This document shows, one piece after another, positions 15,201 to 30,498 of a stretch of 64,000 nucleotides of DNA (the first letter of the stretch is position 1; each line of letters starts with the position of its first letter). This DNA comes from Acidobacteriota bacterium. Lineage in GTDB: Bacteria > Acidobacteriota > CAIWXX01. Below the pieces are notes generated by a model that saw only the letters and a program-made list of their open reading frames with translations, was not told where the DNA came from and did not search any database. The stretch lies in the NCBI GenBank assembly GCA_040755995.1, contig JBFMAF010000044.1, positions 35,067 through 99,066 on the forward strand, in the 5' to 3' direction. The position numbers were made by a program, and so were the translations under genes.

Positions 15201-16039
15201 CCGGGTGCGCCTCTGGCATTCGATCCATTCGTGTACCCCTCGACACCCATGTCCGAGATGATCGTCCCGTCGAATACGTACCTTGGCGTACCGGCAATGC
15301 TCTCGCCCTTTGCGCCGTTGTTGTCGTTGGTCGCGACCGTGCGGTAGTCGGTGCTCGCACCTGTATCGCCCGTCAGTTGTCGGCCGCCGCCACCCGCAAA
15401 ACCGAGCCCGTCCACACTGACGGTGCCGCCCAGAGTGAGCGTCCCGCTCACGTCTATGGCAAGCACGCCGCCGACAGCTCCGTCCCAGAGCAGCGCAGTG
15501 AGCGTCGAGCTGAGCGTGGCACTTCTGTATCGAGGCACGCGCATGAGTTGCCAGGTCCTGCGAGGTGTCGCTGTCAGGAGGCTCTGCCTGTAGGAATGGA
15601 GTAGCCCGTTGCCGGCGCCCGCACCGGTGATGTCGACCCAGCCGGCTCCGCTCACTGCGCTCTGTGCGACAAGGTACTCAAAGTAGCCCACCCTGTTCAG
15701 GTTGGTCTGGCCGTTCGCCGGATCGCTGGCCACGCCGTCGCCGTATAGATTGCTTTGCGACGCGTTGATGTCGGCGTCCTGCATCTGCATGATGAGCAGC
15801 ATGTCGCCGGCCGCAATTGCCGGGTTTCCGGACGGGTAGATGGATCCGTAGACACGGACAGACGTGGCACCGGCTGCAGGACTGTTCCGTCCCTGATAGT
15901 AGCTGTTGACGATCCCGCTGAGGGTCCCGCCAGCCGGCAGCGTGTCGCACGGGCCGGCCTGGAGCCCCGCGGGCACTAACATGACCACCGAAGTAAGTAT
16001 CCCGAAGATACTTCCAAGTGGCGTATGATGTCGTCTCAT
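12263..16039 (-). CDS. Secreted C25 (gingipain-like) cysteine peptidase with N-terminal Gly-rich domain
   Basis: Signal peptide; GGGGG-rich N-half; YVLLVGD, PELAIGRLP, catalytic His (FFGHGS) and Cys (WTC), GGAIASVG, LLGDP. Confidence 0.88.
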   Translation of the reverse strand: MRRHHTPLGSIFGILTSVVMLVPAGLQAGPCDTLPAGGTLSGIVNSYYQGRNSPAAGATSVRVYGSIYPSGNPAIAAGDMLLIMQMQDADINASQSNLYGDGVASDPANGQTNLNRVGYFEYLVAQSAVSGAGWVDITGAGAGNGLLHSYRQSLLTATPRRTWQLMRVPRYRSATLSSTLTALLWDGAVGGVLAIDVSGTLTLGGTVSVDGLGFAGGGGRQLTGDTGASTDYRTVATNDNNGAKGESIAGTPRYVFDGTIISDMGVEGYTNGSNARGAPGNAGGGGTDGNPAANDENSGGAGGGNGGLGGRGGRTWNSDLDRGGHQGATFPYATGANARIAMGGGGGAGTRNNSPTIANASSGGPGGGTVLIRAYEVTGTGTITANGRGRDISGITPENDGGGGGGAGGTVVVVAPTGTWTGLTVQARGGGGADAWPLQAPGSYPGARHGPGGGGGGGVVLLSSGSAGIDVSGGVNGTTTTALDAFGATPGSTGVSQTAVTLSDIPGVRLCDDPNAPTWARIMGVRVNRGGFVEFATASQFASAAFNIYQTSDPFGQADVELISNEPVPANPLAILEPEVYRVNTRPINEPFILIEEIECGGTTRMLGPFPVESSVLARQLELVEQRLAEKSLPARTPVPQAGTLIERGGAVTALKLEVSRVGIVRVPVADLVAAGLPAEYAATPEQLRLTNLGQVVGFNVLKDAGGAATIEFVSTAFATDYSSRNVYVVTWGAATAPAPSVHFTKSGFAEFPGGTRVEQNLFYAPFIAQGGDPWVWNFLSTWFPPDELSFDLPSLAAPPAGSIPVRIGVVGGTDHTHTIEAWINGNRVGQVSFRGKTTGEIWGEIPGGALNKTGNKIAFVYSADVSGPTDGALAFIDVVDMGFPLAAPTDEVHADRIAPYNTDLSLNPHGTEYLIATHGAFGSQAEQIGAAKRGKYRVSVVNAERAYDRFSSGVVEPNAIKSMIAEIRQANRRNMKYVLLVGDDTYDPRDFMGRGHVSFIPSLNGWDDVFGRVPSENKYADTDGDGSPELAIGRLPVSTVDEAQAMADKITSRASAPVDENARRRHIIAVDNQGPTDPSFYQAAAEAANHLPSRARLVWANIESGADQARSNLLYSLKSGAQATHFFGHGSFEIWSDDGLLAVDDAATLAGSRGNTVLFTWTCEVQWYQLATGPTINEALLLLPKGGAIASVGPTGITDPTLQRTLYVQLYDNLGKGMTLGEALREAKEKALRSDAKLKPVVDGWSLLGDPSLELSW

Positions 16040-16635
16040 CCTACCCCCCTATCCTTGGGCAGCAGGTGCCCTCGCTGATTGCGATGTTGCCCTCTGTTTG
16101 ACTGCTCAAGATTAAACTGCAACAAATAGAAGCATAGCATATTACTCGAATTCTGGAAAGAGCCCGCGCTCGCTCGCCCGCTCGCCCGCTCGGCATGTCG
16201 GCTGGGAAGCAGGAGTTGCGGAAGAGGCTCAGGCAGGCCGAGTGACGTGGGCGTCGCCCGCAGCTCATCGGACTACTGGGGACCGTGCCGGCAAATCGGA
16301 CATCCCCGCCACGCATGTGTGCCCCGCGGGCGCCGCGTTAGATATCAGAGACTTGCGCTCAGCCTCGGTCCTTCACGCAGGCTGTATGTCCGAGAGCCGG
16401 ACATTCAGAGTCAAGCCCACAGGACGAGCGAACAGTGCTAACTCATAGAGAATCCAGTACTTGCGCGGCATCCGGCACGCTGGCACGGGCCTTGCTCTAC
16501 ACCGGGCAGGAGGTAGCAGAGATGGACAAGCGGATGAGAGAGGAAGCGAGGACATCAACGGGCGCCGCAGTCGTTGGCCGCGGCGAACAGGCTACCTCGA
16601 GATTGGTCGTAACGGAGCGCAGGGAGGAGATGACA

Positions 16636-17886
16636 ATGAACAGAATCGCTGGACTGATGGTGCTATGCCTGGTTCTCTTCGGTTGGAGTGCGCAGGCAGC
16701 CGAGACAACTGAGAAGAACGGTCTGCCCGAGCAGGTCCGCTACCACGAGACGGTGATCGCATTCTCGGGGGCGGAGAGCAACGCCTCCGGTCAGACTTCT
16801 TTTTACGCCTTTGGCCAGGAGTTCGTGCTGAATCTCGAGGCCATGAATGATCTCGCGTCCGATGAGGCGGATAGGCGAAGCATTCGTCGACCTGAGGAGG
16901 CCCTCTACAGAGGTACAGTCCAGGGCGATGACGGTTCGTGGCTGCGCGGCAGCATGACCGGATCGGTGTTCGAGGGCGTGATTCACACGAGCAACGACGA
17001 CTACTTCGTCGAGCGCGCTTCGAGACACTTCGCCGACAGGCCCGATGACGAGATGATCATCTATCGCCGTTCCGATTGCGACTCAGGGTGGGAAGCCTTG
17101 GCCGGCGGCCCGATCCCCGTGATCGCCAACATCACCAGCACGCAGCCGGGCATGGCTACGATCTACGGCTCGGGCTTCTCCGCCAATGCTCCTGAAGTCC
17201 GCGTCTTCTTCGGTGGCTACTTCGCGCCCCTGAAGAGCACCAGCCGTTCCGCCATCGTCGTCAAGATCCCCTCCGGCGCGCTCCGGGCCGGCACAGTGGC
17301 CGTCCACGTGGTCGTGAAGGGCGTGTGGAGCGACGGCTACTACTTCCGCTTCGGGCAGAGCGTTCCGTCAGGGCCGGCTCCCGTCATCACAAACGTCACC
17401 AGCACGCAGCCGGGCATGGCTACGATCTCAGGCTCGGGCTTCTCCGCCAACGCTCCTGAAGTACGCGTGTTCTTCGGCGGCTACTTCGCACCCCTGAAGA
17501 GCACCAGCCGCACCGCCATCCTCGTCAAGATCCCCTCCGGCGCACTCCGGGCCGGCACAGTGGCTGTGCACGTGGTCGTCAAGGGCGTATGGAGCGACGG
17601 CTACTACTTCCGCTTCGGGCAGAGCGTTCCGTCAGGGCCGGCTCCCGTCATCACAAACGTCACCAGCACGCAGCCGGGCATGGCTACGATCTCAGGCTCG
17701 GGCTTCTCCACCAACGCTGCTGAAGTACGCGTGTTCTTCGGCGGTTACTTCGCACCCCTGAAGAGCACCAGCCGTTCCGCCATCCTCGTCAAGATCCCCT
17801 CTGGCGCGCTCCGCGCCGGCACGGTCGCCGTGCACGCGGTCGTGAAGGGCGTGTGGAGCGACGGCTACTACTACAGCGTGCGCTAG
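16636..17886 (+). CDS. Secreted protein: reprolysin (M12B) propeptide-like domain plus three IPT/TIG-like repeats
   Basis: GGAGG RBS, signal peptide MNRIAGLMVLCLVLFGWSAQA, AFGQEFVLNL...YRGTVQGD..S..GVI....YFVE...IIYRRSD, then three 88-aa P.IT.V...ATI.GSGF repeats. Confidence 0.7.
   Translation: MNRIAGLMVLCLVLFGWSAQAAETTEKNGLPEQVRYHETVIAFSGAESNASGQTSFYAFGQEFVLNLEAMNDLASDEADRRSIRRPEEALYRGTVQGDDGSWLRGSMTGSVFEGVIHTSNDDYFVERASRHFADRPDDEMIIYRRSDCDSGWEALAGGPIPVIANITSTQPGMATIYGSGFSANAPEVRVFFGGYFAPLKSTSRSAIVVKIPSGALRAGTVAVHVVVKGVWSDGYYFRFGQSVPSGPAPVITNVTSTQPGMATISGSGFSANAPEVRVFFGGYFAPLKSTSRTAILVKIPSGALRAGTVAVHVVVKGVWSDGYYFRFGQSVPSGPAPVITNVTSTQPGMATISGSGFSTNAAEVRVFFGGYFAPLKSTSRSAILVKIPSGALRAGTVAVHAVVKGVWSDGYYYSVR
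17110..17880 (+). repeat. Three near-identical 264-bp intragenic tandem repeats
   Basis: AGCACGCAGCCGGGCATGGC recurs at 17137, 17401 and 17665 (period 264). Confidence 0.95.
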
Positions 17887-17912
17887 CGCATCGATAGACT
17901 CCTCCTCCAAAA

Positions 17913-17952
17913 TCAGGCCTCGGGCGTCGAGAGATCGAAACCCGGGGCCTGA
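17913..17952. terminator. Stem-loop between convergent genes, probable terminator
   Basis: TCAGGCCTCGGG / CCCGGGGCCTGA inverted repeat, with a T-run shortly downstream. Confidence 0.55.
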
Positions 17953-18063
17953 AGCGTTTTTGAAGAGCGATAGGAGCAGGTTGGCAGCCGGCATTCGTGA
18001 GTGGACGTGGAGACGCGTGGACACAGAGACGCGGTGAAGGGATCGCCCACCCGGTCGCCGGAT

Positions 18064-18384
18064 CTAGCCGGCCGTCCGATCGGTGCGCTTGACGACCTTC
18101 ACTGACTCGAGCTGCGCCAGGAAGCGGCGGTAGTCATCGGCGGCCTGGTCGACACCCACATCGAAGCGGCCGGTCATCTCCTTTACGATCTGCTCACCGG
18201 TAGTCTCCCCATCCAGTCGTTCCCAGATGAACGATCCAACGCGGTTCAGGTGGAAGATCGAATCGAGGTCGGCTCCTTTGGCCACGATCGGAACCAGGAC
18301 GAACTCGCCGGCGATGTTCCGCGCAACGACGTTCGGATCGCGGGCGAAGGCGGTCTCCAGCGTCGCCGGGGCGTCCTCGGTCAC
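18064..18384 (-). CDS. PqqD-family RiPP recognition element (peptide chaperone)
   Basis: VVARNIAGEFVLVPI...IFHLNRVGSFIWERLDG...FDV....A..D...FL..L; GTG start overlaps the upstream TGA. Confidence 0.88.
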   Translation of the reverse strand: MTEDAPATLETAFARDPNVVARNIAGEFVLVPIVAKGADLDSIFHLNRVGSFIWERLDGETTGEQIVKEMTGRFDVGVDQAADDYRRFLAQLESVKVVKRTDRTAG

Positions 18385-18836
18385 AGGCCACGGTTCCGCA
18401 GGGCTAGCCGCAGCCGCGTCCGGAGTCCGCGGCACAGTGAGCGCACAGCGACAGCCGGGCGTGATCGAACGGTGTCGGGCTGCGGTCCCTCGACCGCCAC
18501 CACGGTCCCCAGCACATCTCGGGGCGACACCCGCACATCCCAGACCTGGGCCCTGTCCGCCATGGTCCTCCACGAAGAAGTCGCGCGCGCGATGGGCGGG
18601 CCCCAGATCAGGCGGTGAACGCGAAGCCCCGCTGGCTGCCGCACCAGAACCAGGTCGCCTATCCGCGGGCGCCGGAGCGTCGTGCCGGCCACGCAGACAG
18701 TGTCTCCCGGTGAAAGCGCTGGCTCCATGCAGCCACCCGTGGTCCTCAGACGGACATGCCGGAAGGCCGACAGGCATTGGCGGATCACGCCGTCAGACAA
18801 CTCGCGCGAGGCATCCAGCGTTAGAACATCCGGCAT
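18381..18836 (-). CDS. S24/S26 signal-peptidase-like protein
   Basis: TTGGCMEPALSPGDTV, IGDLVL, VHRL, TMAD, VLGTVVAVE. Confidence 0.75.
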   Translation of the reverse strand: MPDVLTLDASRELSDGVIRQCLSAFRHVRLRTTGGCMEPALSPGDTVCVAGTTLRRPRIGDLVLVRQPAGLRVHRLIWGPPIARATSSWRTMADRAQVWDVRVSPRDVLGTVVAVEGPQPDTVRSRPAVAVRSLCRGLRTRLRLALRNRGL

Positions 18837-19215: not shown

Positions 19216-22215
19216 ATGATTCAACTCTTGGTCTCGGACCGAACGGCGCGCGTCAAGTCCGTGACGAACCTCTTCATCAGGACGCTGCTGCGGCTGATGG
19301 CGGCGAATTTCAACCACCGCCGCTCTCTGCGAGAGTACCTGCGGAGCGATCAGGGGTGGATCAACTTCTCGATCGGCTTCCGCACCGACGGCGGCTCGGT
19401 CGAGACGGGCATGATCTTCCGTGACGGCCGCGTGCAAGTCATCGGAGGCATTCCCGAGAACGCGAATGTCATCCTGAGCTTCGACTCGGACCGGTCGCTC
19501 AGGAGACTGCTCTCGGCTACGCCGACCGAGCAGGTGTTCATGATTCTCAAGAGCCGCCTGAAGTACGAGGGCAGCTCCGCCTATCTCAACCTTTTCTTCT
19601 TTCTCCTTTCTCTGCTCATCATCAAGAAGCAGAAGAAGCTGATGGAGAGGGAGCGTCGCGAATCGAAGCGAAATCTGCTGAAGCAATCGCCCGCGGCCAG
19701 GACGGAGCTCAGCACGGAGCTTCAGGCGAGGCGGGCATATCGCATGAAGGCCGAGTCGATCGATCCGGGTGTGAAGTACTTGAAGGAGCCGTATCTTTCG
19801 GAATACTCACTCGACGATTTCCCGCGGGTCAAGCAGTTCTTGGATGACCACTTTGCGGTGAAGGCCGAGGTCTGCCCGGAGCTTCCGAAGCTGCTCACCG
19901 ACTGGCACAAGAGATACGGCTTCGAGATCGACCAGGCGGGCAAGCCATGGGTTCCCGTCTCAAGGAAGGCCCATGCACACAAGTACATGATGGAGAACCG
20001 GAAGCCCATCATCCACAAGAACGACCTCATCGCCGGCACGACGACCTCGAAGGATGTCGGTGTGGTCGTCTACCCCGAGGGGCACGGGACGATGATCTGG
20101 TCGGAGCTACTCACGGTGCCTCACCGGTCGCTCAATCCGTACGACGTGAGCGCAGAGACCGTACAGATACTGCACCACGAGGTGTTCCCTTACTGGGCCG
20201 GGCGCAACTTCAAGGAATGGGTGCGCGAGAAGTACCAGCGACCGCTCTGCCAGAAGATCGACGAGCGCTTCGCGGTCTACTTCGACTGGAAGTCGGTGAC
20301 GATCTCGCACACTGTCCCGGATTTCCCCAAGGTCATGCGCCTGGGTGCTCGCGGCATGATCGAGGAGATACGGGCGGAGCTCGGGTCAGGCGACTGTGAC
20401 GCCGAGAAACGGGCCACGCTCGATGCGATGGTCCTGGTTCTCGAGGGCCTCACGACATACTCCAAGAACCTGGCGCGACAGGCTGGTCGCGAGGCGGATG
20501 CCGAGTCCGATGCGAGGCGAAAGGCGGAGCTCTATCGGCTGTCGGAGATCTGCGCGCAGGTGGTGGAGAACCCGGCGCGCACCCTGGATGAGGCGGTCAA
20601 CGCCATGTGGATCACATGGGTGGGGCTGCACCTGGAGAGCACCAACGCGGGTCTCTCGCTCGGCAGGCTCGACCAGTGGCTCCAACCGTACTTCGCGGCA
20701 GACATCGCGAAGCTCCAATCGGACGAGGAACGCGAGGAATACGTCCGGCGCGCAATCGAGCTTGTCGGCTGCTTCTACATGCGCTCGACCGACCATCTGC
20801 CGCTCACCCCCGACGTCGCCAACTTCTACTTCGGCGGCAGCTCCTCGGACCAGGCGATCACGCTTGGCGGCGTCACCCCCGACGGTGAAGACGCCGTCTG
20901 CGACATGACATACATCTTCCTCAAGGTCACCGAGATGCTCTCCATCCGCGACCCGAACGTCAACGCCCGGTTCCATCCCGGCAAGAACAGCGACACGTAT
21001 CTGAAGCGGCTCTGCGAGGTGAATCTCATCACCTCTGCCACACCGTCGATGCACAATGACGAGGTAGTCATGACCTCGCTGCGGCAGTTCCCTTACGACG
21101 AGCGCGATCGCCGCAACTGGGCCGCAACCGGCTGCGTCGAGCCCACGTTGTGCTCGAAGCACATCGGCCATACCAACATGCAGATGATGAACATGGTAGC
21201 TGCGCTCGAAATGGCCTTGAACAACGGCAGGCATCCGGTGATGAATTGGAAGCTCGGTCCGGAGACCGGTGAGATCGAGAACGGAACCTTCGAGACCTTC
21301 GACGGCTTTTTCGATGCCTTCACGACTCAATTCAAATTCCTGATCGACCAGTCGATCCAGTACAACAACATGCTGGCCGAGGCCCATCAGTACCTGCGGC
21401 CTACCCCCCTGCTCTCCTCGCTCATCGGCGGGTGCATCGAGAAAGGCCGCGACGTCACCAAGGGAGGCGCCGTATACAACAGCTCGGGTGCGGCCATCAT
21501 CGGGCTCGCCGACGTCACCGACTCCCTCATGGTCATCAAGAAGCTGGTCTACGATGAGAAGAAGGTCACCTTCGCCCAGCTCAAGCGGGCGGTCGACTCG
21601 AACTTCGAGAATGCGCCTGCGCTCTACGCCATGGTCACCAACAAGGTCCCGCTCTTCGGATCGGGCAGTACCGAGGCTGTGGCCATGGCCAACCGCGTCA
21701 CGAAGTGGGCGCACGACTACTACTCGAGCCTGCCGCACTACCGCGGCGGCAAGTACACCGTAGGGTTCTGGTCGATGTCCAACCATGTCATCTACGGCAC
21801 CCTCACCGGCGCTCTGCCGTCGGGCCGGCGCGCCGGGAAGCCCTTCACCCCGGGCCTCACACCCCAGCCGTGCGCGTCCCGCAACCTCCTCGACAACATC
21901 AAAGACGTGGCCATGCTCGACCCGGCCAACATCACCAACAACATGGCGTTCAACGTCAAGGTAGTCCCGCACAGCGGCGACCCGCGTGAAAAGACCGTCA
22001 GCCACATGTTCTCGTACGTCAAGTCGTACTTCCAACTGGGCGGCATGCAGATGCAGATGAATGTCGTGACCTCCGATACGCTCCGGGATGCCATGGCCCA
22101 CCCCGAGAATTACCGCAACCTGCTGGTGCGCATCTCCGGCTACAACGCCTACTTCGTTACCCTCAACCGGGACATGCAGATCGAGCTCATAGAGCGCGCG
22201 GAGTACGGGTTGTGA
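19216..22215 (+). CDS. Glycyl radical enzyme (PFL2/eliminase class) with N-terminal SCP2-like extension
   Basis: SLGRLDQWL, single-Cys active-site loop GCVEP, C-terminal glycyl motif LLVRISGYNAYF. Confidence 0.92.
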   Translation: MIQLLVSDRTARVKSVTNLFIRTLLRLMAANFNHRRSLREYLRSDQGWINFSIGFRTDGGSVETGMIFRDGRVQVIGGIPENANVILSFDSDRSLRRLLSATPTEQVFMILKSRLKYEGSSAYLNLFFFLLSLLIIKKQKKLMERERRESKRNLLKQSPAARTELSTELQARRAYRMKAESIDPGVKYLKEPYLSEYSLDDFPRVKQFLDDHFAVKAEVCPELPKLLTDWHKRYGFEIDQAGKPWVPVSRKAHAHKYMMENRKPIIHKNDLIAGTTTSKDVGVVVYPEGHGTMIWSELLTVPHRSLNPYDVSAETVQILHHEVFPYWAGRNFKEWVREKYQRPLCQKIDERFAVYFDWKSVTISHTVPDFPKVMRLGARGMIEEIRAELGSGDCDAEKRATLDAMVLVLEGLTTYSKNLARQAGREADAESDARRKAELYRLSEICAQVVENPARTLDEAVNAMWITWVGLHLESTNAGLSLGRLDQWLQPYFAADIAKLQSDEEREEYVRRAIELVGCFYMRSTDHLPLTPDVANFYFGGSSSDQAITLGGVTPDGEDAVCDMTYIFLKVTEMLSIRDPNVNARFHPGKNSDTYLKRLCEVNLITSATPSMHNDEVVMTSLRQFPYDERDRRNWAATGCVEPTLCSKHIGHTNMQMMNMVAALEMALNNGRHPVMNWKLGPETGEIENGTFETFDGFFDAFTTQFKFLIDQSIQYNNMLAEAHQYLRPTPLLSSLIGGCIEKGRDVTKGGAVYNSSGAAIIGLADVTDSLMVIKKLVYDEKKVTFAQLKRAVDSNFENAPALYAMVTNKVPLFGSGSTEAVAMANRVTKWAHDYYSSLPHYRGGKYTVGFWSMSNHVIYGTLTGALPSGRRAGKPFTPGLTPQPCASRNLLDNIKDVAMLDPANITNNMAFNVKVVPHSGDPREKTVSHMFSYVKSYFQLGGMQMQMNVVTSDTLRDAMAHPENYRNLLVRISGYNAYFVTLNRDMQIELIERAEYGL

Positions 22216-22276
22216 CTCAGGGCTATGCGGGTGGGCCGGGCGCGTACTGACGACGAAGTCGGGCCAGGAGGGATGC

Positions 22277-22355
22277 GACGCGGAGACGCGGAGCCACGGA
22301 GACGCGGGGAAAGAGAAGAACGCCGAAATGCGGGGACACGGAGACGCGGTGACGC
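22277..22355. repeat. Largest member of a dispersed octamer tandem repeat family (GGAGACGC/GGGACACG/GGTGACGC)
   Basis: Related arrays at 18009-18036, 25964-25997, 27431-27464, 34708-34745 and 39860-39893 (last on the opposite strand). Confidence 0.75.
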
Positions 22356-22357
22356 TC

Positions 22358-23305
22358 ATGAACAGCCAGCCGGACCTCGGCGCCAGGCCCGGGACGGAGC
22401 GACCGCCGCTGCTGTTCGAGATCAAGGGCAACTCGCTCGATGACGGCCCGGGCATCCGAACGGTCGTCTTCTTCAAGGGCTGCCCGCTCAGGTGCCGGTG
22501 GTGCCATAACCCCGAGGGTATGCGCGCAGGTCCCGAGATTTCGTACGATGCCGGCAAGTGCGCCTCTTGCGATCAGTGTATCGCGCTATGCCCGAAAAAG
22601 GCGCTCGCGCGCGACAACCCGCATTTCGTGGACCGTGAGCGTTGCGATCTCTGCGGCGAGTGCTTCGATCAATGCCCTTCCGGCGCTCTGAGAAAGGTCG
22701 GCCTCCCGCTCCCTGTCGAGACCGTCGTTGAATGGGTGCTAAGCGATAGGCCGTTTTTCGACAACTCCGGTGGAGGCGTGACACTCTCCGGCGGCGAGCC
22801 GTGTCTCTACATGCACTACGTCTCGCTCTTGGCTGCGCAACTCCACGAACACGGTATCCACGTGCTGCTCGAAACCTGCGGCTGGTTCGACTACGAGCGG
22901 TTCCGGGAGACTGTCCTGCCCCACCTGGACATGATCTACTACGACATCAAGCTCTTTGATAGCGCGCCGCATCGCGAGTACTGCGGCGTTCCCAATTCCC
23001 TTGTTCTAGACAACTTCACGCGCTTGCTCAGGGACGCGAAGAACGGTCGTCCGTCGATCCTGCCCCGCACGCCACTGGTGCCGGGGATCACGGACACCGA
23101 GGCAAACCTGCGCGCAATCGCAGGTTTCCTGAGGGACCAGGGTGTGAGATTCGCGGCCCTCCTAGCCTACAATCCACTCTGGCCGGAGAAGAGCCGCAGC
23201 CTCGGCACCGAGCCCGGCCGGAGTCTGGCCGCGGCGAAGTTCATGAGTCGCGACGAGATCGAACGCTGCAGGCGCATCTTCGCCGCCGCCGGCGTCGAGA
23301 CGTGA
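22358..23305 (+). CDS. Glycyl-radical enzyme activating enzyme (radical SAM with ferredoxin insert)
   Basis: DGPGIRTVVFFKGCPLRCRWCHNPE, two CxxCxxCxxxCP ferredoxin motifs, GGGVTLSGGEP. Confidence 0.93.
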   Translation: MNSQPDLGARPGTERPPLLFEIKGNSLDDGPGIRTVVFFKGCPLRCRWCHNPEGMRAGPEISYDAGKCASCDQCIALCPKKALARDNPHFVDRERCDLCGECFDQCPSGALRKVGLPLPVETVVEWVLSDRPFFDNSGGGVTLSGGEPCLYMHYVSLLAAQLHEHGIHVLLETCGWFDYERFRETVLPHLDMIYYDIKLFDSAPHREYCGVPNSLVLDNFTRLLRDAKNGRPSILPRTPLVPGITDTEANLRAIAGFLRDQGVRFAALLAYNPLWPEKSRSLGTEPGRSLAAAKFMSRDEIERCRRIFAAAGVET

Positions 23306-23364: not shown

Positions 23365-23898
23365 CTACTCGTCCATCTTGTACACGTCGGCTCCGCCGAC
23401 CGACCGCGCTTCGGTGCGCGTCTTCACCTGGCCGCCGCAGCTCGGGCAAGTCGTGGTGGCGTCGGTGATTCGGAACTCGGCGCCGCAGTACTCGCAGGTT
23501 CGGACGGCGAGCCGAGGCTGGAGGTCGCGGAAGACGTAGTACCAGCTGCCCGCCCTCGGCAGGCGCTCGCACAGCCCCTCGGCGCTCATGGTGTCGAGGA
23601 CGCTCGTCGCGTGGCGTGCGCGGGCTCCGAGTGCGGCTTCGACATCCGCCCAGGAGATCTCTCCGTTGCGCCGCCGTGCGACTTCCATGATCTCTCCTCG
23701 CAGCCGCTCCGGAGACACCGCCTCGGCCTGCTTGTAAAGCCTCAAACCCACCCCGATGAGAATCGCTCCGGCGGCAAGAAGAAGCAGAGCCACGGTGTAG
23801 CGCGCCGCCTGCCCGGCCGCCCCCACCACGAACAACAGCCCGAGCGCCACGCTCACGATTCCGACTGGAACCAAGAGAATGCATGCAATCCTCTTCAT
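23365..23898 (-). CDS. Hypothetical membrane protein with C-terminal zinc ribbon
   Basis: Two TM helices after MKRIACILL; CEYCG...CPSCGG. Confidence 0.65.
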   Translation of the reverse strand: MKRIACILLVPVGIVSVALGLLFVVGAAGQAARYTVALLLLAAGAILIGVGLRLYKQAEAVSPERLRGEIMEVARRRNGEISWADVEAALGARARHATSVLDTMSAEGLCERLPRAGSWYYVFRDLQPRLAVRTCEYCGAEFRITDATTTCPSCGGQVKTRTEARSVGGADVYKMDE

Positions 23899-23932: not shown

Positions 23933-24301
23933 CTAGGCTCCCAGCGGCAGCGGACGGACGCGATGGCGGGATTCCTCGACCACAACGATCGCCCCCCGTT
24001 CGATCGCCAACGACGAGTCGACCAGCACTTTCCTAAGTCGGTCGATGACATGATGTGTGCTTGTGTTGTGAAGTCGAAAGATGATTACACTTCGGACCAC
24101 CCCCGCTGACATGGCGAGGATCTCGCCGAAATCAAGATCGAACGTAAGCAGGATGCGGGACTCGTCGTATGTCTTCTGGAAGATGGCCACATCGGGAAGT
24201 CTCCCTAATTCCTCCTCTCGAAGATGGAGAGCATCGTGTCCGTTGGCACGCAGCCAGTCCACCACCCTCTGTGCGACCCCCATGTCGGCGAGGAACCTCA
24301 T
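23933..24301 (-). CDS. DUF5615-family PIN-like toxin
   Basis: MRFLADMGV...LRANGHDA.H...LPDVAIF...RILLTFDLDFGE...RVRPLP. Confidence 0.88.
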   Translation of the reverse strand: MRFLADMGVAQRVVDWLRANGHDALHLREEELGRLPDVAIFQKTYDESRILLTFDLDFGEILAMSAGVVRSVIIFRLHNTSTHHVIDRLRKVLVDSSLAIERGAIVVVEESRHRVRPLPLGA

Positions 24302-24310
24302 TGGGCGCGC

Positions 24311-24526
24311 TCAGGCCGAGTGGACTTCCTCTTGCGCGAGCCAGGCTGCGTACTCGAGAGCCTGTCGAATATCGTCGGATTCAAGGTCTGGATAGTCAGC
24401 GAGCACCTCATCCACGCTCGCGCCATGTGCAACCTGTCCGACGATCACCGAGACGGGAATCCGCATCCCACGGATGCAGGCACGACCTCCGAGGATCTGG
24501 GGATCAAACGTTATTCGGTCGAACAT
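24311..24526 (-). CDS. DUF433-family antitoxin
   Basis: RITFDPQILGGRACIRGMRIPV...YPDLE..DIRQALEYAA; start set at ATG 24526 with GGAGAGGA RBS. Confidence 0.9.
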   Translation of the reverse strand: MFDRITFDPQILGGRACIRGMRIPVSVIVGQVAHGASVDEVLADYPDLESDDIRQALEYAAWLAQEEVHSA

Positions 24527-24646
24527 GCGCTCCTCTCCTGAGAGAAACGACCTCACATCTTCATACTCCGGCATGGATCGAAAGGCAAGACCCCGTCCCT
24601 CCCTCCCTCGTCCTGTCCCTTTCGCCTTTCCCCTTTTCCCTCTCGC

Positions 24647-25894
24647 TCATCCCCACTGCGCCTTGGCTTGCAGCGACAGCTCTTGGCCCATCGTCTCGAA
24701 GTACAACTTGATGTTGTCCGCGGTGAAGACATTCTGGGTGAGGGCCGCCACCTGTGAGGCGAAATCCTGAGGGTGGAGTGACAGATCTTTAGAAACCGCG
24801 TCCCTTAGCTGGTCGAAGTGCCGTCCGTACTGCATGCTCCGGTCGGGCACCTCGATCTGCAGTTTGGCCAGCGGGTACCGCTTCTCGTTCTCGATCATCT
24901 TGGTGACGCTCTCCATGAAGGCATCCATGCCGGTCTTGAGCCCGCGCACCAGGCCGATGATCTCCTGGCACGCCTTCATGCCGTCGGCGAAACGGCGGTG
25001 ATGCAGATTCAGTTGAGCCATCTCGTCGATGCTACCCTCGAGATCCGGCCGATCCGGTGTCAGGCGCATGGCGCAGATGTGGCAGAAATGGTTGGATGCC
25101 GGGTTGGGAGACGCGCAGCGCGGGCAGGCCGGGTCGCCGGGTTTCGGCGGTGGAGGCATCGTCGCCTTCTCGAACAGCACCCGCTCCAGCGAGCTGCGCG
25201 CTATCACCTGCGATCGGGATTGCTCAAGGTAGTCTATCTTCGCCTGCACGGCCGCCGCATCGCTCTCGAGCTTCACCCATTCGCCTCGCAGCTCCCGCTC
25301 CCGCTCGACACCTTCCGCCTCCGTTTCCTTCCAGCGCGTTCGCAACGCGTCGATTCGCGCAGCCACGTCGCCCTGTTCCCTGTCCAGCCTCTTCCGCTCG
25401 GCTGCCAGCGCCCGCATCCGGAACAGGTTCGAGAAGAAACCGAATCCGCGGCCCATCTGGCGGATCCGATCGTTGTACCCGCGGATCTGCTCCAGGAGCT
25501 TCACGCTGCGAATCTTCAGAGCCTCCTCCTCGGCATCCAGCGACGTATTCTTCCGGCGCACCAGCTTCTCCAGCTCCAGCGATCGCCTCCGCCGCTCCTC
25601 GGCCTCCTTCGCCAGAGACGCGTGACGTTCCTGAATCCGGGCCAACTCCTGATCGAACTCCTTCGTCGCCGCCGCCTCGGCAGAGGTCAGGGCTGCGTCA
25701 AGCCATCCGGGCAATGCAGCCCGGCCGGCCCGCACATGCCCGTCCAGTTGCCCCAACTCCGCCTCCCTCACCCGCGCGACTTCGCTGAAGAACGACTCGT
25801 ACTTCGTCTGCAGCGCGCAGAGCTTCTCCTCAGCCCCCTTGAGCGCATCCCGGCGGCCTGCGAGGTATTTCTCGAAATCACTGAGACGCCCCAT
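24647..25894 (-). CDS. Long coiled-coil protein with double zinc ribbon
   Basis: E/R/K/L heptad-rich; CPRCASPNPASNHFCHIC; ATG 25894 lies 8 nt after the radical SAM stop. Confidence 0.7.
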   Translation of the reverse strand: MGRLSDFEKYLAGRRDALKGAEEKLCALQTKYESFFSEVARVREAELGQLDGHVRAGRAALPGWLDAALTSAEAAATKEFDQELARIQERHASLAKEAEERRRRSLELEKLVRRKNTSLDAEEEALKIRSVKLLEQIRGYNDRIRQMGRGFGFFSNLFRMRALAAERKRLDREQGDVAARIDALRTRWKETEAEGVERERELRGEWVKLESDAAAVQAKIDYLEQSRSQVIARSSLERVLFEKATMPPPPKPGDPACPRCASPNPASNHFCHICAMRLTPDRPDLEGSIDEMAQLNLHHRRFADGMKACQEIIGLVRGLKTGMDAFMESVTKMIENEKRYPLAKLQIEVPDRSMQYGRHFDQLRDAVSKDLSLHPQDFASQVAALTQNVFTADNIKLYFETMGQELSLQAKAQWG

Positions 25895-25902
25895 TTCTGC
25901 GT

Positions 25903-27576
25903 TCACCTGCTCATGTGGGTTACGGTTGGCTGTTCGTCTTGCATGGGTAAGGCACGGGCATCCGACGCGGAGACACGGGGACGCGGGGATACGGTGAAAC
26001 CGACCCCGTAGCTCCTCCCGCGCTTGCGCAGCCGCTCCCAGCTCGCGCGCGCGCGTGTATCCCCGGCGCCGGCCCGCGGGATCTCGCCAAAACCCCCGGC
26101 CACGTCCCAGTATAGCGGGCATGCACCCGCGCACACATCCACGTCAGCGCACTCCGTGCATGCCGGCGGCACGTACAGTCTCTTCTTCCAGTACTCCGCG
26201 GCCCGGCCGCGCCGGATACTTTCGTACGAGTGCGTCAGCAGAGACCCGATCCCCTGCGCGAAAGACGAGCACGGCAGCACCTCACCGTCGGGCGCCACCG
26301 AAAGTATTCCGCTGACGCATGCGCAGGACTTCGCACCGAGCCCGTGCAGGACGGGATTGAAGATGCAGTAGGGGATCGGCGAGTACCACACAAGGCGCAC
26401 CGATTCGCTGCGAGCCGTGTCCAGCAGTGCCGGCAGTCTCCTGCCCACCTCCGTGTAGCTCACTTCCATGTCGTCCCTGCTCAACGCAGTGCCGGTGCGG
26501 ATCACCATGTTCATGGAGATGGTGCCCAAGCCGAGGTCGCGGCCGGCGAACCGGATGAGATCGTGCGCGGCATCGAGGTTCGCGGCGCAGAGCGTGCTGT
26601 TCGTGTGCACATGAATCCCGAGTCGCTGGAAGTGGCGAATGCCCGCTACGGTCTGTTCGAAGGCCCCCTCGCGCCCCACGATTCGATCGTGGACTTGGGC
26701 GCAGCCGGCTTCCAACGAGACTTGGGCCGATGCCAGTCCGGAATCTGAGAGTAGCCGGGTGTAGGAAAGATCCGCGGCGCGCACACCGTTGGTGATGAGG
26801 TTCACCCTGAAGCCGAGCGAAGCGCCGTAGGCGATCAGCTCCGGCAGCTCCGGCCGCAACGTGGCCTCCCCACCCGTGAAGCTCAGCGACGGCACATGAG
26901 CCTCGTGGAAAATGCGATCCATCACACGCTCCACCTCGTCCACCGACATCATCCGATGCTCGCGCGCCCTCAGAGGGCTGGCAGCGTAGCAGAAGGCGCA
27001 TCGGTTCTGGCAGCCGTAGGTGAGCGCGATCTCGGCGAGCGTTGGATACCGCACCATGGCGGGCGTGAACGAGCCGAGCCGCAGGTTTGGCGACGGCGAG
27101 AAATCCTCGTGAAGTATCCGCCGCAGGGTCTGGACGAGCCCATCCGCGTCGGTCACAAGCTGCTCCGCCGGCACACCCACCTCTGATGAGAGCGCGCACA
27201 GGACCTCCGCTGCCGGCCGCCCCTCGCGATTGTACAGCGCAGCCAGGATCTTGACCGCCGAGTCGTTCAGACCGAGGGTCTTGTCGGGGCGTATCATCAG
27301 CAAGCGGTCGACCTGCCGCACGAAGATCGCAGCCCGAGTCGACTCTACGAACCGATCGATCTCTGAAAGGAGAGGGTGGGTCGATTCGGTCTCGATTGTG
27401 GCGTCTTCGGGTCTGCGGCGATTCGAATCCGACGCGGTGGCGCGGTGACGCGGTGACGCGGAGAGGTCCTCGCACAAATCACCGTGTCTTGGTGTCTCCG
27501 CCTCCCCGATTCCCCGATTCCCCGATTCTCCGTTTCGGATGCGAATCCCCACGCGGCTGCCGATCCCATTCAGCAT
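25903..27576 (-). CDS. RRE (PqqD-like)-radical SAM-SPASM enzyme (start uncertain; recognisable protein begins near 27395)
   Basis: N-terminal LGLNDSAVKIL RRE-like domain, CQNRCAFC, FTGGEA, SPASM KSCAC...DGEVLPCSS...CTECADVDVCAGACP. Confidence 0.88.
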   Translation of the reverse strand: MLNGIGSRVGIRIRNGESGNRGIGEAETPRHGDLCEDLSASPRHRATASDSNRRRPEDATIETESTHPLLSEIDRFVESTRAAIFVRQVDRLLMIRPDKTLGLNDSAVKILAALYNREGRPAAEVLCALSSEVGVPAEQLVTDADGLVQTLRRILHEDFSPSPNLRLGSFTPAMVRYPTLAEIALTYGCQNRCAFCYAASPLRAREHRMMSVDEVERVMDRIFHEAHVPSLSFTGGEATLRPELPELIAYGASLGFRVNLITNGVRAADLSYTRLLSDSGLASAQVSLEAGCAQVHDRIVGREGAFEQTVAGIRHFQRLGIHVHTNSTLCAANLDAAHDLIRFAGRDLGLGTISMNMVIRTGTALSRDDMEVSYTEVGRRLPALLDTARSESVRLVWYSPIPYCIFNPVLHGLGAKSCACVSGILSVAPDGEVLPCSSFAQGIGSLLTHSYESIRRGRAAEYWKKRLYVPPACTECADVDVCAGACPLYWDVAGGFGEIPRAGAGDTRARASWERLRKRGRSYGVGFTVSPRPRVSASDARALPMQDEQPTVTHMSR

Positions 27577-27598
27577 TCCTGACAGCACCGCGCGACCT

Positions 27599-30415
27599 CT
27601 AGAAGCTGCCGGCGCACGAAGAGTGGCACGCCGAGTGGCACGCGGAATGACAGGCACAGGCCGAATGGCATGCCGAGTGGCACGCAGAGTGACAGGCCGA
27701 GTGGCATGCGGAGTGACATGCTGAATGGCACGCGTCGTAACCCGCCGCGATCGACCCTGCTATGGCGGGTGCCAGCGGGCCGCCAGCGGCGGCCAGCTTG
27801 CGGGAGTCCCCATCGAAGTTGAACAGGCCCTCCAGCCGGTCGACTGTCGCGCGCGCTCCGCTCTCCACCGACTCCACCACCCCCTGCGCGAACTCCTGCA
27901 CGCGCTCGACCGCACCCGTGAGCGTTCGGACTTCGCGCGACGCGCCGAGTACCGAGAGAGGGGAGTCGAGCGCCGCGTTCGTCCCGATGGGCTCGAAGCT
28001 CCGGTTCAGATTGGAGAAGAAGCTGTCGTGGAGGTAGAGGGTCGTGTAGTGCGTATCGAAGTAGGATCGCTGGTCACGCGATGAGAGCCGCCGGAGCTCA
28101 TCCCAGGCCGAGTCGGCGGATCGGCGCTGCGCATCGGCCGTGGCCTTCATGTCGGCTCTCCAGATCTTCGGCTGCATGCTCTTGGCAATCGCAGCGAGTA
28201 TGGCCTGCACGCCTTCGCGCAGCAGTGTGCCTTCTTTGGTGACGTGCGTGAGCAGCGCCTTCTCCGGGTCGCTCTGGAACCTGCCCGAATCTAGCACCTC
28301 GACCTGCAGCGGATTCCTGCTCAGGATGCGCAGTGCGCCTCTCGCCTGAAGGCCCATGACCAACAGGTTGATCGCCTTGATCGGGCGATCGATGAGCATC
28401 GCGGCCTCGACAGGTTCCAGTTCCGGTATGAAGCCCTCCTTCTGGAAAGTAGCGACGGTGATCTCCGGCGAGACGTACGCCGGCGCCTTCTTCTTCATGT
28501 AGGTAGCCAGGTAGGGGTGGAGGCGCAAGATCCAGACCAGCACTGCAAGCACTCCGCTGATCAGCAGCCAGGCTGCGCGGAACGGCACGAGCACGGCGGT
28601 CCATCCGAAGAGAGTGCCCTTGGTGGGATGCAGCCATCGGAACTTGCCGGCGGGCAGGAGCATGTCTCTGCACAGACGTGTGCCGGCGATCTTGTCGACG
28701 ATGGCGAGCGGCCACCCGATCGTGATCAGCCAGAGAAGCAGCAACATCCAGTTCAGGAAGAAGGTCACGATCACCCAGGCGAGCAAGACTCCCGCGAACT
28801 CCGCCGCCTCCTCGTTGTCTCGCTGCGTCAGCTCGCCGTGGACCAGTCGCGCCAGAAAGAGGCGCACGCTCATAAAGAACGGCACGGGCAGGTTCATCGG
28901 CTCGGCAGGCAGCCAGGCAGAGAGTCGCAGAGGCTCGGCCAGGCGATCACGCCTGACCCATCGCAGCACGCACTCCGGCTGGGAGGCCGGGAGCCTGGGG
29001 TACGATCTGATCAATCGGAACCGGTTGTACTCAGGCCAGTCGACCGCCCGCGAGCTGATTTCGACTGCGTGCCGAGGCGGCTCGATCAGCCAGACCGGGA
29101 TACTGACCGACTCGTCCAGAGTGATCCCTGGTTTCACTGGATCAAGGACAGGGAGGCCGGAGTACAGGGTGATTTCAGACGACTTCAGCCGATCGCGAGG
29201 CGCGTATTCCTGATTAACCCCCCGAAAGTCCAGCCTGACGTAGGGCGTCCGACCCTCCAGGACGACTCCCACGCCGCGTTGGAATGCGTAACAGTACTCG
29301 TACGTGAGCTCGATGGTCTGGCCCGGCTCGCTCGGCGGGGAAAACCGGACCGAGTCGATTTCCGCCGAGCTTGCAGCCTCGCGGCCGTTCAGGCTGATCT
29401 TCGCGGGTGTCCCGTAGCCCAGTGGAAACATCCCCCGCGTGGTACGTGGTTCCGGCAGGAAGTTGCGCGAGCCCTCTTCTACGAAGCTGAGCGTCATGGC
29501 GACTCGGACCGGGTGTGGCGGCTCTTCGGCGAGCAGGTTCTCGGACGGCTTCGCATTGGCGAACACCTCGTACTTCTCCGATAGCAGATACGCCCGCCCC
29601 TCCGCGTGCAGCTTTTCCGCCGCCGCTGCGCCGCTCTCCTCAACGTCGCTCCCGGCGGCAAGCGCCGGCATGGCCTCGCGGGGGATGTAGAGGCGAGTGA
29701 AGTGAGTTCCCTCGCGTGGGACGTTCGTGCGCTCCGCGTAGAACGTCAGGCGCCGCGATCCCGCGTAGTCGGTGTAGACGAACGCCCACTTCTGCTGATC
29801 CTTCAGAACTTCCGGATCGGTTATCACACCTAGCTGGTCCACCATGGCCGGCGTGATGTCTTCGTGCCGTTGTACCTCGGCGGGAAGCGCGAGCGGCAGA
29901 ACGAGCTTGATCACCGATCGCCGCACGGGCATGCTCCATCGAACGGGGTTGAACCAAACCGCCAGCAGCCCCTTGCCGTCGCGCGTCGTGGGATCTGCGA
30001 AGCGGTGATTGCAGCGCATGTGCAGTTCGAGCGTGTACGTGCCTCCGGCGCGCGTCGGCCTCGCGAAGCGAACGCGGTAGTAGCCGTCGCCGACGGAGCT
30101 TACCTGAGCCTCAGTAGGCGCCTGCTCCGTGCGCAGATACGCTCGGGTAAAATGGGCCGGCTCGTAGAACTGCCCGATCTTCCTGATCTCCGAGCGCCCT
30201 TCGTTGTCCAGGAACTTCAGGCTGTAGATGACGTCCATCGCCCCGTTGTCCTGCACGAAGGCCTGGCTGTCGGCTTCGAGCAGCTCCACCGGATCGGCGA
30301 CACACAGGATCGCCGTCGCGAGAACCGATGCGATCGGCAGGGCGAAAGGAGCAAGCTGCGATCGAATGATCCAGCGGCTGCGGCCTGCACCGGTCTTGGA
30401 CATACCCGCCCTCAT
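27599..30415 (-). CDS. Large membrane protein (DUF2207-like architecture) with C-terminal Cys/His-rich (CHSA)n tail
   Basis: Signal-like N-terminus, extracytoplasmic region, TM block, LEPVEAAMLI motif, and tail YDA(CHSA)6CA(CHSA)2CHSSCAGSF. Confidence 0.8.
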   Translation of the reverse strand: MRAGMSKTGAGRSRWIIRSQLAPFALPIASVLATAILCVADPVELLEADSQAFVQDNGAMDVIYSLKFLDNEGRSEIRKIGQFYEPAHFTRAYLRTEQAPTEAQVSSVGDGYYRVRFARPTRAGGTYTLELHMRCNHRFADPTTRDGKGLLAVWFNPVRWSMPVRRSVIKLVLPLALPAEVQRHEDITPAMVDQLGVITDPEVLKDQQKWAFVYTDYAGSRRLTFYAERTNVPREGTHFTRLYIPREAMPALAAGSDVEESGAAAAEKLHAEGRAYLLSEKYEVFANAKPSENLLAEEPPHPVRVAMTLSFVEEGSRNFLPEPRTTRGMFPLGYGTPAKISLNGREAASSAEIDSVRFSPPSEPGQTIELTYEYCYAFQRGVGVVLEGRTPYVRLDFRGVNQEYAPRDRLKSSEITLYSGLPVLDPVKPGITLDESVSIPVWLIEPPRHAVEISSRAVDWPEYNRFRLIRSYPRLPASQPECVLRWVRRDRLAEPLRLSAWLPAEPMNLPVPFFMSVRLFLARLVHGELTQRDNEEAAEFAGVLLAWVIVTFFLNWMLLLLWLITIGWPLAIVDKIAGTRLCRDMLLPAGKFRWLHPTKGTLFGWTAVLVPFRAAWLLISGVLAVLVWILRLHPYLATYMKKKAPAYVSPEITVATFQKEGFIPELEPVEAAMLIDRPIKAINLLVMGLQARGALRILSRNPLQVEVLDSGRFQSDPEKALLTHVTKEGTLLREGVQAILAAIAKSMQPKIWRADMKATADAQRRSADSAWDELRRLSSRDQRSYFDTHYTTLYLHDSFFSNLNRSFEPIGTNAALDSPLSVLGASREVRTLTGAVERVQEFAQGVVESVESGARATVDRLEGLFNFDGDSRKLAAAGGPLAPAIAGSIAAGYDACHSACHSACHSACHSACHSACHSACACHSACHSACHSSCAGSF
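27614..27730 (-). repeat. Coding 12-bp repeat encoding nine CHS(A/S) units (11 Cys)
   Basis: Direct translation; synonymous codons differ between units. Confidence 0.95.
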
Positions 30416-30498
30416 AGCTATGTCAACTGTGCTGACTCTCGGGCACTATGCATCAGCGGGCGAATCGGTGTCAAGCTGACGCCGCGAGCCCTCAGCGA

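Follow-up and report, generated by a model that had tools for sequence, protein, structure and literature searches.

Which reaction could be served by a gene pair that encodes a full-size membrane protein with a cysteine/histidine repeat at its end and a radical S-adenosylmethionine (SAM) enzyme? This question is raised by a locus of an Acidobacteriota bacterium (assembly GCA_040755995.1), located in a stretch of 64,000 nucleotides of contig JBFMAF010000044.1 (positions 35,067 to 99,066) which we call the window. The initial annotation had proposed that the repeat, a (CHSA)n tail, is the substrate of the neighbouring enzyme, which carries a recognition element (RRE) known from peptides that are made by the ribosome and modified after translation (RiPPs). 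The membrane protein, called carrier from now on, and the enzyme form a real, widespread and strongly coupled pair. In its mode of action this pair resembles an RRE-radical SAM RiPP maturase whose core is fused; CrpC/CrpA is the closest case, and none of the named families that were tested includes it. The genes and protein parts under discussion are the following (window coordinates).

27599 to 30415, minus strand: carrier (substrate) gene, DUF2207-like membrane protein of 938 aa, or 934 aa if the start is 30403
30299 to 30355, minus strand: signal peptide or N-terminal anchor, aa 21–39 (hydropathy; AlphaFold2 helix 22–36)
28901 to 30286, minus strand: two extracytoplasmic beta-sandwich domains, aa 44–253 and 275–505 (AlphaFold2 model)
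28520 to 28804, minus strand: membrane region, aa 538–632, probably three passes, one in most relatives (hydropathy, model)
28436 to 28483, minus strand: predicted RRE-docking strand, aa 645–660 (co-fold interface, conservation)
28046 to 28435, minus strand: most likely cytoplasmic DUF2207_C/TIGR04222-like domain, aa 661–790 (pLDDT, the predicted value of the local distance difference test, about 90)
27599 to 27730, minus strand: (CHSA)n tail, aa 896–938, proposed modified core
25903 to 27576, minus strand: RRE-radical SAM-SPASM enzyme gene, start uncertain, part common to relatives from about 27378
27055 to 27378, minus strand: RRE domain and linker strand
26119 to 26367, minus strand: SPASM region with seven conserved Cys (six in 59/59 enzymes, one in 57/59)
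24647 to 25894, minus strand: coiled-coil gene with optional zinc ribbon, 415 aa, accessory gene of a subclade

Translation of the carrier gene gave the ending YDA(CHSA)6CA(CHSA)2CHSSCAGSF that had been read initially, with 11 Cys and 9 His in residues 896–934. The codon variation between units noticed at the outset was also found: the eight CHSA units are all distinct at the DNA level (0/28 pairs identical), and their 28 pairwise comparisons contain 72 differences at third codon positions and none at first or second positions. Since all these differences are synonymous, the repeat is held by selection at the peptide level and does not stem from recent slippage. Of all six-frame matches to a Cys-motif screen in the genome, only the carrier tail formed a regular CHSA array.

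The tail is characteristic of the family. A protein search with aa 540–938 yielded 70 relatives, 68 of them with a terminal CHxACH repeat; the query held the tail, so some of these matches are tail-driven. A DNA scan for the tail pattern, using one genome per species, returned at least 120 stretches, and 98 of the 120 among the matches listed are real C-terminal tails. The record titles name Chloroflexota, Spirochaetota, Planctomycetota, Myxococcota, Acidobacteriota, Bacillota, Gammaproteobacteria, Omnitrophota, Gemmatimonadota, other candidate phyla and Thorarchaeota. With the exception of two (263 and 370 aa), the open reading frames (ORFs) that bear the tail and are complete have lengths of 497–935 aa among the matches listed. 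The window had shown no free small precursor and none occurs among these ORFs; a separate small precursor peptide was ruled out as the substrate. The median identity to the window carrier was 0.87 for the tail (n = 78), a generous figure because repeats align easily, 0.29 for the cytoplasmic domain (n = 80), 0.19 for the ectodomain (n = 77) and 0.11 for the linker (n = 80). Many single-pass carriers (L008, L013, L014, L016 and others) contain a second Cys motif, C-F/Y-x-G-C-F-like, shortly before the repeats.

The linkage of tail and enzyme was determined from both sides. The tail-anchored set comprised 80 flanked pattern loci which, after subtraction of 17 chance matches, left 63 real tail loci. 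The enzyme was present in 57 of these, directly downstream in 50, elsewhere on the same strand in 4 and divergently oriented in 3, which are archaeal. Three of the six loci without a nearby enzyme end at a contig edge, and the genomes of the other three (L014, L029, L061) encode the enzyme elsewhere. The profile of the enzyme separated its matches in a sample of 401 genomes from this phylum into two score groups, one of at least 369 bits (13 genomes, including that of the window) and one of 226–288 bits (42 genomes). The tail pattern occurred in 13 of the 401 genomes, which are the same 13 with the higher score, and 388 genomes contain neither; the two genes are adjacent in 11 genomes and unlinked in 2. 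An enzyme-anchored metagenome set (best 80 loci) showed the tail directly upstream in 62 and elsewhere in the locus in 4, while the upstream DNA was too short in 6 and no tail was seen in 8. After removal of the 6 loci with less than 600 bases upstream (one with a spurious short ORF) the tail was found in 66 of 74 informative loci, which are partly redundant, and related loci do not count as independent. The carrier gene is cut by the contig end in two of the 8 loci without a tail and the other six, with the enzyme and, where the contig extends far enough, the coiled-coil gene, come from one tight lineage.

Thus, these tails mostly accompany the radical SAM gene. The rarity of enzyme-less tails, together with a tail location that is most likely cytoplasmic, goes against two of the outcomes named at the outset as refuting and supports the initially proposed fusion of the substrate to a full-size membrane protein. 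The low complexity of the tail might suggest a chance neighbourhood, a slippage repeat or an assembly artefact. With purely synonymous codon differences, 98 of 120 listed stretches ending in the same tail and agreement in 13 of 13 genomes, this explanation is next to impossible.

Carrier and enzyme trees agree in 22/26 supported splits (carrier splits within the enzyme tree) and in 29/37, with a Spearman coefficient of 0.86 for 49 CHSA pairs. This agreement demonstrates co-inheritance, not contact. The carrier and the enzyme of the window are both nearest to Myxococcota records and not to the same-family genome G010; therefore, the two genes apparently travel together.

The lower-scoring enzymes belong to a sister system. 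In 17/17 fetched loci a related carrier directly precedes the enzyme, and its tail is (Cys-Ala)n-Gly-Gly-Gly-Arg, which is free of His. The (Cys-Ala)n pattern occurs in 36/401 genomes, 35 of which contain the sister enzyme; in the remaining one the tail is followed by an enzyme gene that is broken. Conversely, 35 of the 42 sister-enzyme genomes match the pattern and the other 7 possess variant (Cys-Ala)n carriers downstream. Either enzyme clade is present in 55/401 genomes. In a tree of 62 enzymes the tail type changes once, with a Shimodaira-Hasegawa-like approximate likelihood ratio support of 100 (quick search only). Two archaeal carriers (P0062, P0068) have hybrid tails with CHSA and (Cys-Ala)n in one protein. 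Loci L167 (5798–9312) and L169 (808–6321) encode short carriers of 312–341 aa, of which L169 has a tandem of three. Their (Cys-Ala)n tail comes immediately after the membrane helix, and TPM and LemA genes are neighbours. A variant gene order was observed in L163–L166 and L168, namely enzyme, second SPASM-containing gene and carrier, with a methyltransferase-like gene in 4/5.

The gene behind the carrier encodes a radical SAM/SPASM enzyme, as first assigned. Pfam Radical_SAM matched with E 1.7e-22 and 80.8 bits (cut-off 29.5) and SPASM with E 8.8e-5 and 23.1 bits (cut-off 21.5). The PqqD match (E 7.6e-4, 20.2 bits) stays below its cut-off of 23.4; an N-terminal RRE, likewise assigned before, is nevertheless supported by this match together with a confident AlphaFold2 domain of three strands and helix which takes part in the predicted interface described below. 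The three Cys of CxxxCxxC are invariant in 59/59 enzymes. A first fold search with the enzyme model returned general radical SAM matches only. The top solved relative by sequence is SkfB (PDB 6EFN, E 8e-22), which is also tied for the top by structure (Z 16.1, root mean square deviation (rmsd) 4.0, 253 residues aligned); the second solved relative is a lipid synthase. CteB aligned with the model from residue 19 (Z 12.7, rmsd 9.6, 305 aligned). None of the 74 named NCBIfam radical SAM families scored (AhbD, PqqE, MftC, AlbA, StsB, SkfB, HxsC and others) gave a match at its curated cut-off: the best score was 99.3 bits versus 500, with 67 versus 625 for StsB and 66.4 versus 300 for SkfB. The CrpC family TIGR04463 is not among the best 25 of the 74, which limits its score to 56.5 bits at most.

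The AlphaFold2 model of the carrier has a mean pLDDT of 77.9, with a confident domain at 660–790 and values below 50 in the tail. Its affiliation was approached with several family resources. A feature match in the Atlas gave 0.90 to a DUF2207_C cluster. The carrier has no match to Pfam DUF2207 or DUF2207_C, and 2/10 relatives pass the DUF2207 cut-off. TIGR04222 gave 18.6 bits for the carrier, under the cut-off of 43, and 16.5–29.2 bits for 7/32 relatives, none of which reaches it. TIGR04117, a family of targets with Cys-Xaa-Xaa-Xaa repeats and precursors of about 100 aa, matched only the tail in 4 relatives (14.6–23.8 bits versus a cut-off of 50). PF27846 is precomputed on 14/70 carrier relatives and may already name part of the family; the literature search returned no occurrence of this accession.

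The membrane topology decides whether the enzyme could reach the tail. Most of 73 carriers share one layout, in which a signal peptide and an ectodomain precede a single strong membrane helix with Lys/Arg behind it, and the conserved domain comes next. Judged by this layout the carriers are most likely type I proteins with the tail inside. The cytoplasmic tail on which the initial proposal depended is thus most likely, and for the subclade of the window carrier it is inferred from these relatives. This subclade has a longer hydrophobic insert in the membrane region, modelled by AlphaFold2 as one long helix (aa 531–577) plus a helix at 605–632. The first hydrophobic stretch contains in its middle a conserved Asn, mostly with Gly or Pro after it, and basic residues follow the last helix. 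Because of these features and of the homology to single-pass forms we favour three passes, or one pass with a re-entrant loop. The best Foldseek matches of the ectodomain are oligosaccharyltransferase subunits (E 3e-12, low template modelling score over the entire model) and M1 aminopeptidases (rmsd of about 4 over about 230 columns). Both are in line with an outside location.

A co-fold of the enzyme with carrier aa 640–938 scored 0.84 (median of three runs), compared to 0.00 for the best of 3 controls. The mark applied was reached by 116/157 solved complexes and 2/215 mismatched pairs, counts that are only rough for runs with own alignments. The runs have at least 37% of their contacts in common and the partner pLDDT is at least 65. 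On the enzyme side the confident interface comprises RRE residues 27, 35–41 and 67–108 (numbering from 27378) together with portions of the SPASM region; on the carrier side it comprises aa 645–660 and 748–753, with the lowest error at Ile652. The first of these carrier segments is the docking strand, which lies just after the last membrane helix and about 245 residues before the tail. It had been suggested to co-fold the RRE with the last 120 residues: a contact of RRE and carrier is indeed predicted, but at this juxtamembrane strand instead. Pro650 is present in 85/89 carriers and Ile, Leu or Val at position 652 in 85/89, with both tail types, and the motif is found 160–332 residues ahead of the tail. 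Six carriers (P0040, P0056, P0057, P0062, P0068, P0073), three of them labelled Asgard archaea, have no membrane helix directly before the motif.

These data are best explained by a protein-modification system built on RiPP logic, a reading which, taken as a whole, we consider slightly favoured. The beta-sandwich domains of the carrier would lie outside and its C-terminal part inside. The RRE of the enzyme would dock on the short conserved strand behind the last membrane helix, which would act as an internal leader, and the flexible linker would allow the distant (CHSA)n tail into the active site. Repeated hydrogen atom abstraction would then produce thioether crosslinks from Cys to carbon, each with a loss of 2 Da. 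The acceptor would most simply be the near-invariant Ala adjoining the Cys or lying three residues after it. The tail would probably stay attached as a rigid, His-displaying segment which may bind metal. That enzyme and carrier are an enzyme-substrate pair is very probable, and with comparable confidence we expect that the tail is modified. For Cys thioethers as the product the chances are about even, whereas a metal role of the tail is possible but rather doubtful.

Several features speak for thioethers. Cys and Ala are the residues common to both tail types; Ala precedes Cys in 455/501 tail units and lies three positions after it in 470/501. The seven SPASM Cys are one short of eight ligands, which leaves an iron site open. 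For CrpC, such an open site is proposed to bind substrate Cys, and this enzyme acts on short C-x-x-X motifs (PMC13692751). SkfB, the top solved relative by sequence, is a sactisynthase. The six catalytic-proximity residues, as defined in PMC10288494, are Y-T-I-S-S-S in the window enzyme. They agree with the sactisynthase StsB at 4/6 positions, with CteB at 1/6, with PqqE at 2/6 and with SkfB at 3/4 visible positions. Eight sister enzymes show Y-T-x-T-Q-S, so that positions 4 and 5 switch with the tail type, from S/S for CHSA to T/Q for (Cys-Ala)n.

The same enzyme-substrate pair could instead form a C–C cyclophane between His(i) and Ala(i+2) in every H-x-A triplet and leave the Cys free for metal. 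The H-x-A spacing of the tail fits the His-Ala cyclophanes outlined in PMC11002830. Yet the sister clade serves His-free (Cys-Ala)n tails, both motifs occur together in the hybrid tails and the enzyme combines an RRE with an StsB-like proximity profile; we regard this chemistry as improbable. Another modification of the tail, such as epimerised Ala or Ser, oxidised Cys or a cut close to the C-terminus that perhaps releases a peptide, would agree with the absence of any NCBIfam match at cut-off, with the unique residues at active-site positions 5 and 6 and with the second SPASM gene and the methyltransferase in some (Cys-Ala)n loci. The open auxiliary-cluster site and the Cys-dense core suit thioethers instead, and no peptidase or exporter family recurs in at least 4 of the 63 tail loci, except a generic ABC ATPase. 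Such a modification therefore seems quite improbable.

The proposed modification system also has to be weighed against several opposing observations. Kinship inflates the co-occurrence counts, and the tail itself had a part in the selection of both tail sets. Loci L239, L241, L242, L245, L247 and L258, all of one lineage, contain the enzyme and accessory genes and no carrier in the DNA fetched. The tail is absent from the confident co-fold interface. The co-fold itself may pass by likeness because RRE-leader complexes have been solved (SuiB-SuiA, ChlB-ChlA), and the conservation of the strand may be structural because it lies at the start of the DUF2207_C-like domain. In the generic DUF2207 protein of L181 a similar position is hydrophobic, and the docking motif is missing from the short (Cys-Ala)n carriers in L167 and L169. 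In the model of the window carrier the long helix 531–577 and the helix 605–632 would allow an even number of passes for its subclade. Proximity positions 5 and 6 (S, S) are unlike those of StsB (K, L) and CteB (H, Q). Finally, the best NCBIfam scores belong to heme-synthesis families, far under their cut-offs.

Some of these observations would suit an unmodified Cys/His tail that binds metal or an Fe-S cluster, with a tethered enzyme acting elsewhere, on an accessory protein, a small molecule or a lipid. Contact is predicted for the folded cytoplasmic part and not for the tail, the family scores lead to heme synthesis and the second solved relative to lipid synthesis, and six loci have the enzyme and the coiled-coil gene without an adjacent carrier. 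This explanation is unlikely, since the tail stays the same in subclades whose accessory genes vary, a switch of tail type goes with a switch of active-site residues and, in one case, an enzyme-less genome (G002) has a generic DUF2207 protein that is Cys-free.

The initial gene set of carrier, enzyme and coiled-coil gene was correct in content and order, but a fourth gene was overlooked. It is separated from the third by an inserted gene pair, and a promoter-like site precedes the carrier gene:

30445 to 30474, minus strand: sigma-70-like promoter match 5' of the carrier gene, 10/12, weak
24311 to 24574, minus strand: DUF433 antitoxin-like gene, insertion between third and fourth genes, outside the system
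23933 to 24301, minus strand: DUF5615 PIN-like gene, second member of the inserted toxin-antitoxin-like pair
23365 to 23898, minus strand: fourth gene of the unit, small membrane-hairpin protein of 177 aa with C-terminal double zinc ribbon

The product of the third gene had been described as a coiled-coil/zinc-ribbon protein. A long coiled coil and a weak ribbon match were found, but the ribbon is present in only 6/11 aligned relatives, the one of the window included. The expected co-occurrence of the tail was observed with the radical SAM clade; the coiled-coil gene is found in only 13/63 tail loci, is subclade-specific and was ruled out as a universal part. The zinc-ribbon gene occurs in 11/63 tail loci plus one fusion. 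Both genes mark one enzyme subclade, in which the coiled-coil gene is present in 61/61 metagenome loci with enough DNA. In 34 other tail loci a different membrane gene of about 300–340 aa takes its place; these alternative third genes gave no Pfam match, and the coiled-coil protein was assigned to no family in the Atlas. The zinc-ribbon gene directly follows the coiled-coil gene in most relatives having both; therefore, the DUF433/DUF5615 pair is an insertion. This pair was ruled out as a system part, as was a DUF72 gene, since neither recurs in at least 4 loci. The hairpin of the zinc-ribbon protein has a homologue in the gene that lies upstream of (Cys-Ala)n carriers (probability 98.3). In L066 (2547–3599, minus strand) the coiled-coil and zinc-ribbon genes are apparently fused in one ORF.

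The promoter match is weak, with 3 sites versus 0.9 ± 0.8 in shuffled sequences. The carrier may start at Met5 (30403), where the Atlas entry begins. Where the enzyme starts is uncertain: no in-frame ATG exists other than that at 27576, which lies about 66 codons 5' of the part common to relatives, and the stretch in between runs through short repeats with up to 17–18 copies genome-wide. Tandem repeats of 8–9 bases that recur throughout the genome occur in gaps between genes (27379–27598, 22223–22330); those at 27379–27598 stay in frame and thereby extend the enzyme ORF by these codons. Converging on the unit, 19216–23305 (plus strand) encodes what we take to be a glycyl-radical-enzyme-like protein of 999 aa with an extra N-terminal domain and its likely activating enzyme. 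At 12263–18836 (minus strand) a presumably PqqD-like small gene and a peptidase-like gene (18064–18836) lie near a secreted protein of 1258 aa which we assume to be C25-peptidase-like.

Among known systems, the closest is CrpC/CrpA of Methanococcus voltae (TIGR04463). According to PMC13692751, CrpA is a soluble 28.8-kDa protein with an N-terminal RRE recognition sequence and CrpC a ranthisynthase-like enzyme. Both systems combine an RRE-radical SAM-SPASM enzyme with seven SPASM Cys and C-terminal Cys repeats on a protein-size substrate; that account also has CrpC recognizing its substrate partly via a folded domain and proposes a metal role. In contrast, the presumed substrates here are membrane proteins of 500–950 aa with a predicted internal docking strand, the proximity profile is closer to StsB, and the ranthisynthase-like profile is absent, with 1/6 proximity residues common with CteB. 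StsB resembles the window enzyme at 4/6 of these residues, and the StsA core CxCxC resembles the sister tail; StsA and the SkfB substrate (PMC10288494) are small free precursors with hairpin Cys-Gly links, unlike the period-four repeat here, and positions 5 and 6 differ. TIGR04222 membrane proteins with Cys-containing low-complexity C-termini adjoining an MNIO enzyme have been proposed as its substrates (PMC12452194), with no link to radical SAM in the passages considered. They resemble the carrier as membrane proteins with a related domain and such a C-terminus next to a peptide-modifying enzyme; their Ser/Gly-rich tails are predicted to be periplasmic there, whereas the carrier tail is most likely cytoplasmic. 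An MNIO was ruled out as the modifying enzyme, with 0 PF05114 matches in the genome of the window (99.84% complete). The triceptide enzymes HaaB and ScaB (PMC11002830) link His(i) with Ala(i+2) in H-x-A, a triplet present in every CHSA repeat; by this description they are set apart by small precursors without regular Cys, and the sister tails here are His-free.

YciQ-like DUF2207 proteins share the signal peptide, the beta-sandwich ectodomain, the cytoplasmic L-x-P-x-E domain and a low-complexity end with the carrier, and TPM and LemA neighbours with L169. The generic member of L181 differs: its C-terminal domain has one more hydrophobic stretch, its Ser/Gly tail is free of Cys and its genome is enzyme-less. 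The SPASM enzyme QhpD introduces several Cys-Asp/Glu thioethers into QhpC, a small soluble subunit of quinohemoprotein amine dehydrogenase that remains a protein. By description the proposed multiple thioethers on a lasting protein are alike; the small soluble subunit is unlike the carrier. In c-type cytochromes heme is bound by CXnCH motifs on the outer face of the membrane. Heme-c attachment was ruled out here, as the tail is most likely cytoplasmic and the sister tails are without His. No description of the tail-enzyme pair was found in the literature searched, whose scope left out subscription journals and bioRxiv supplements. A search for DUF2207 together with radical SAM returned nothing, and one for the tail peptide motifs returned no peptide occurrence among the matches listed, most counts being a DNA-like string.

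A crosslinked His array under a receptor-shaped protein would suggest metal binding or signalling. Tentatively, the carriers may represent a membrane-anchored RiPP-like class with an internal juxtamembrane leader, up to about 10 crosslinks and an unreleased, His-lined rod for metal binding or signalling, and the sister enzymes may act likewise on (Cys-Ala)n. One enzyme lineage would so have made a modified core out of the Ser/Gly tail of DUF2207 proteins, both in Asgard archaea and in many bacterial phyla, across which the pairing, common in the phylum sampled, extends. Apart from a few soluble proteins, radical SAM crosslinking is known nearly exclusively on short peptides, whereas the likely substrate here is a whole membrane protein. 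Genome mining based on small precursors would overlook this system. The predicted docking strand can be tested directly and would be usable as a transferable tag to multiply crosslink a protein tail. For a branch of the DUF2207-like proteins the pair is a first functional handle.

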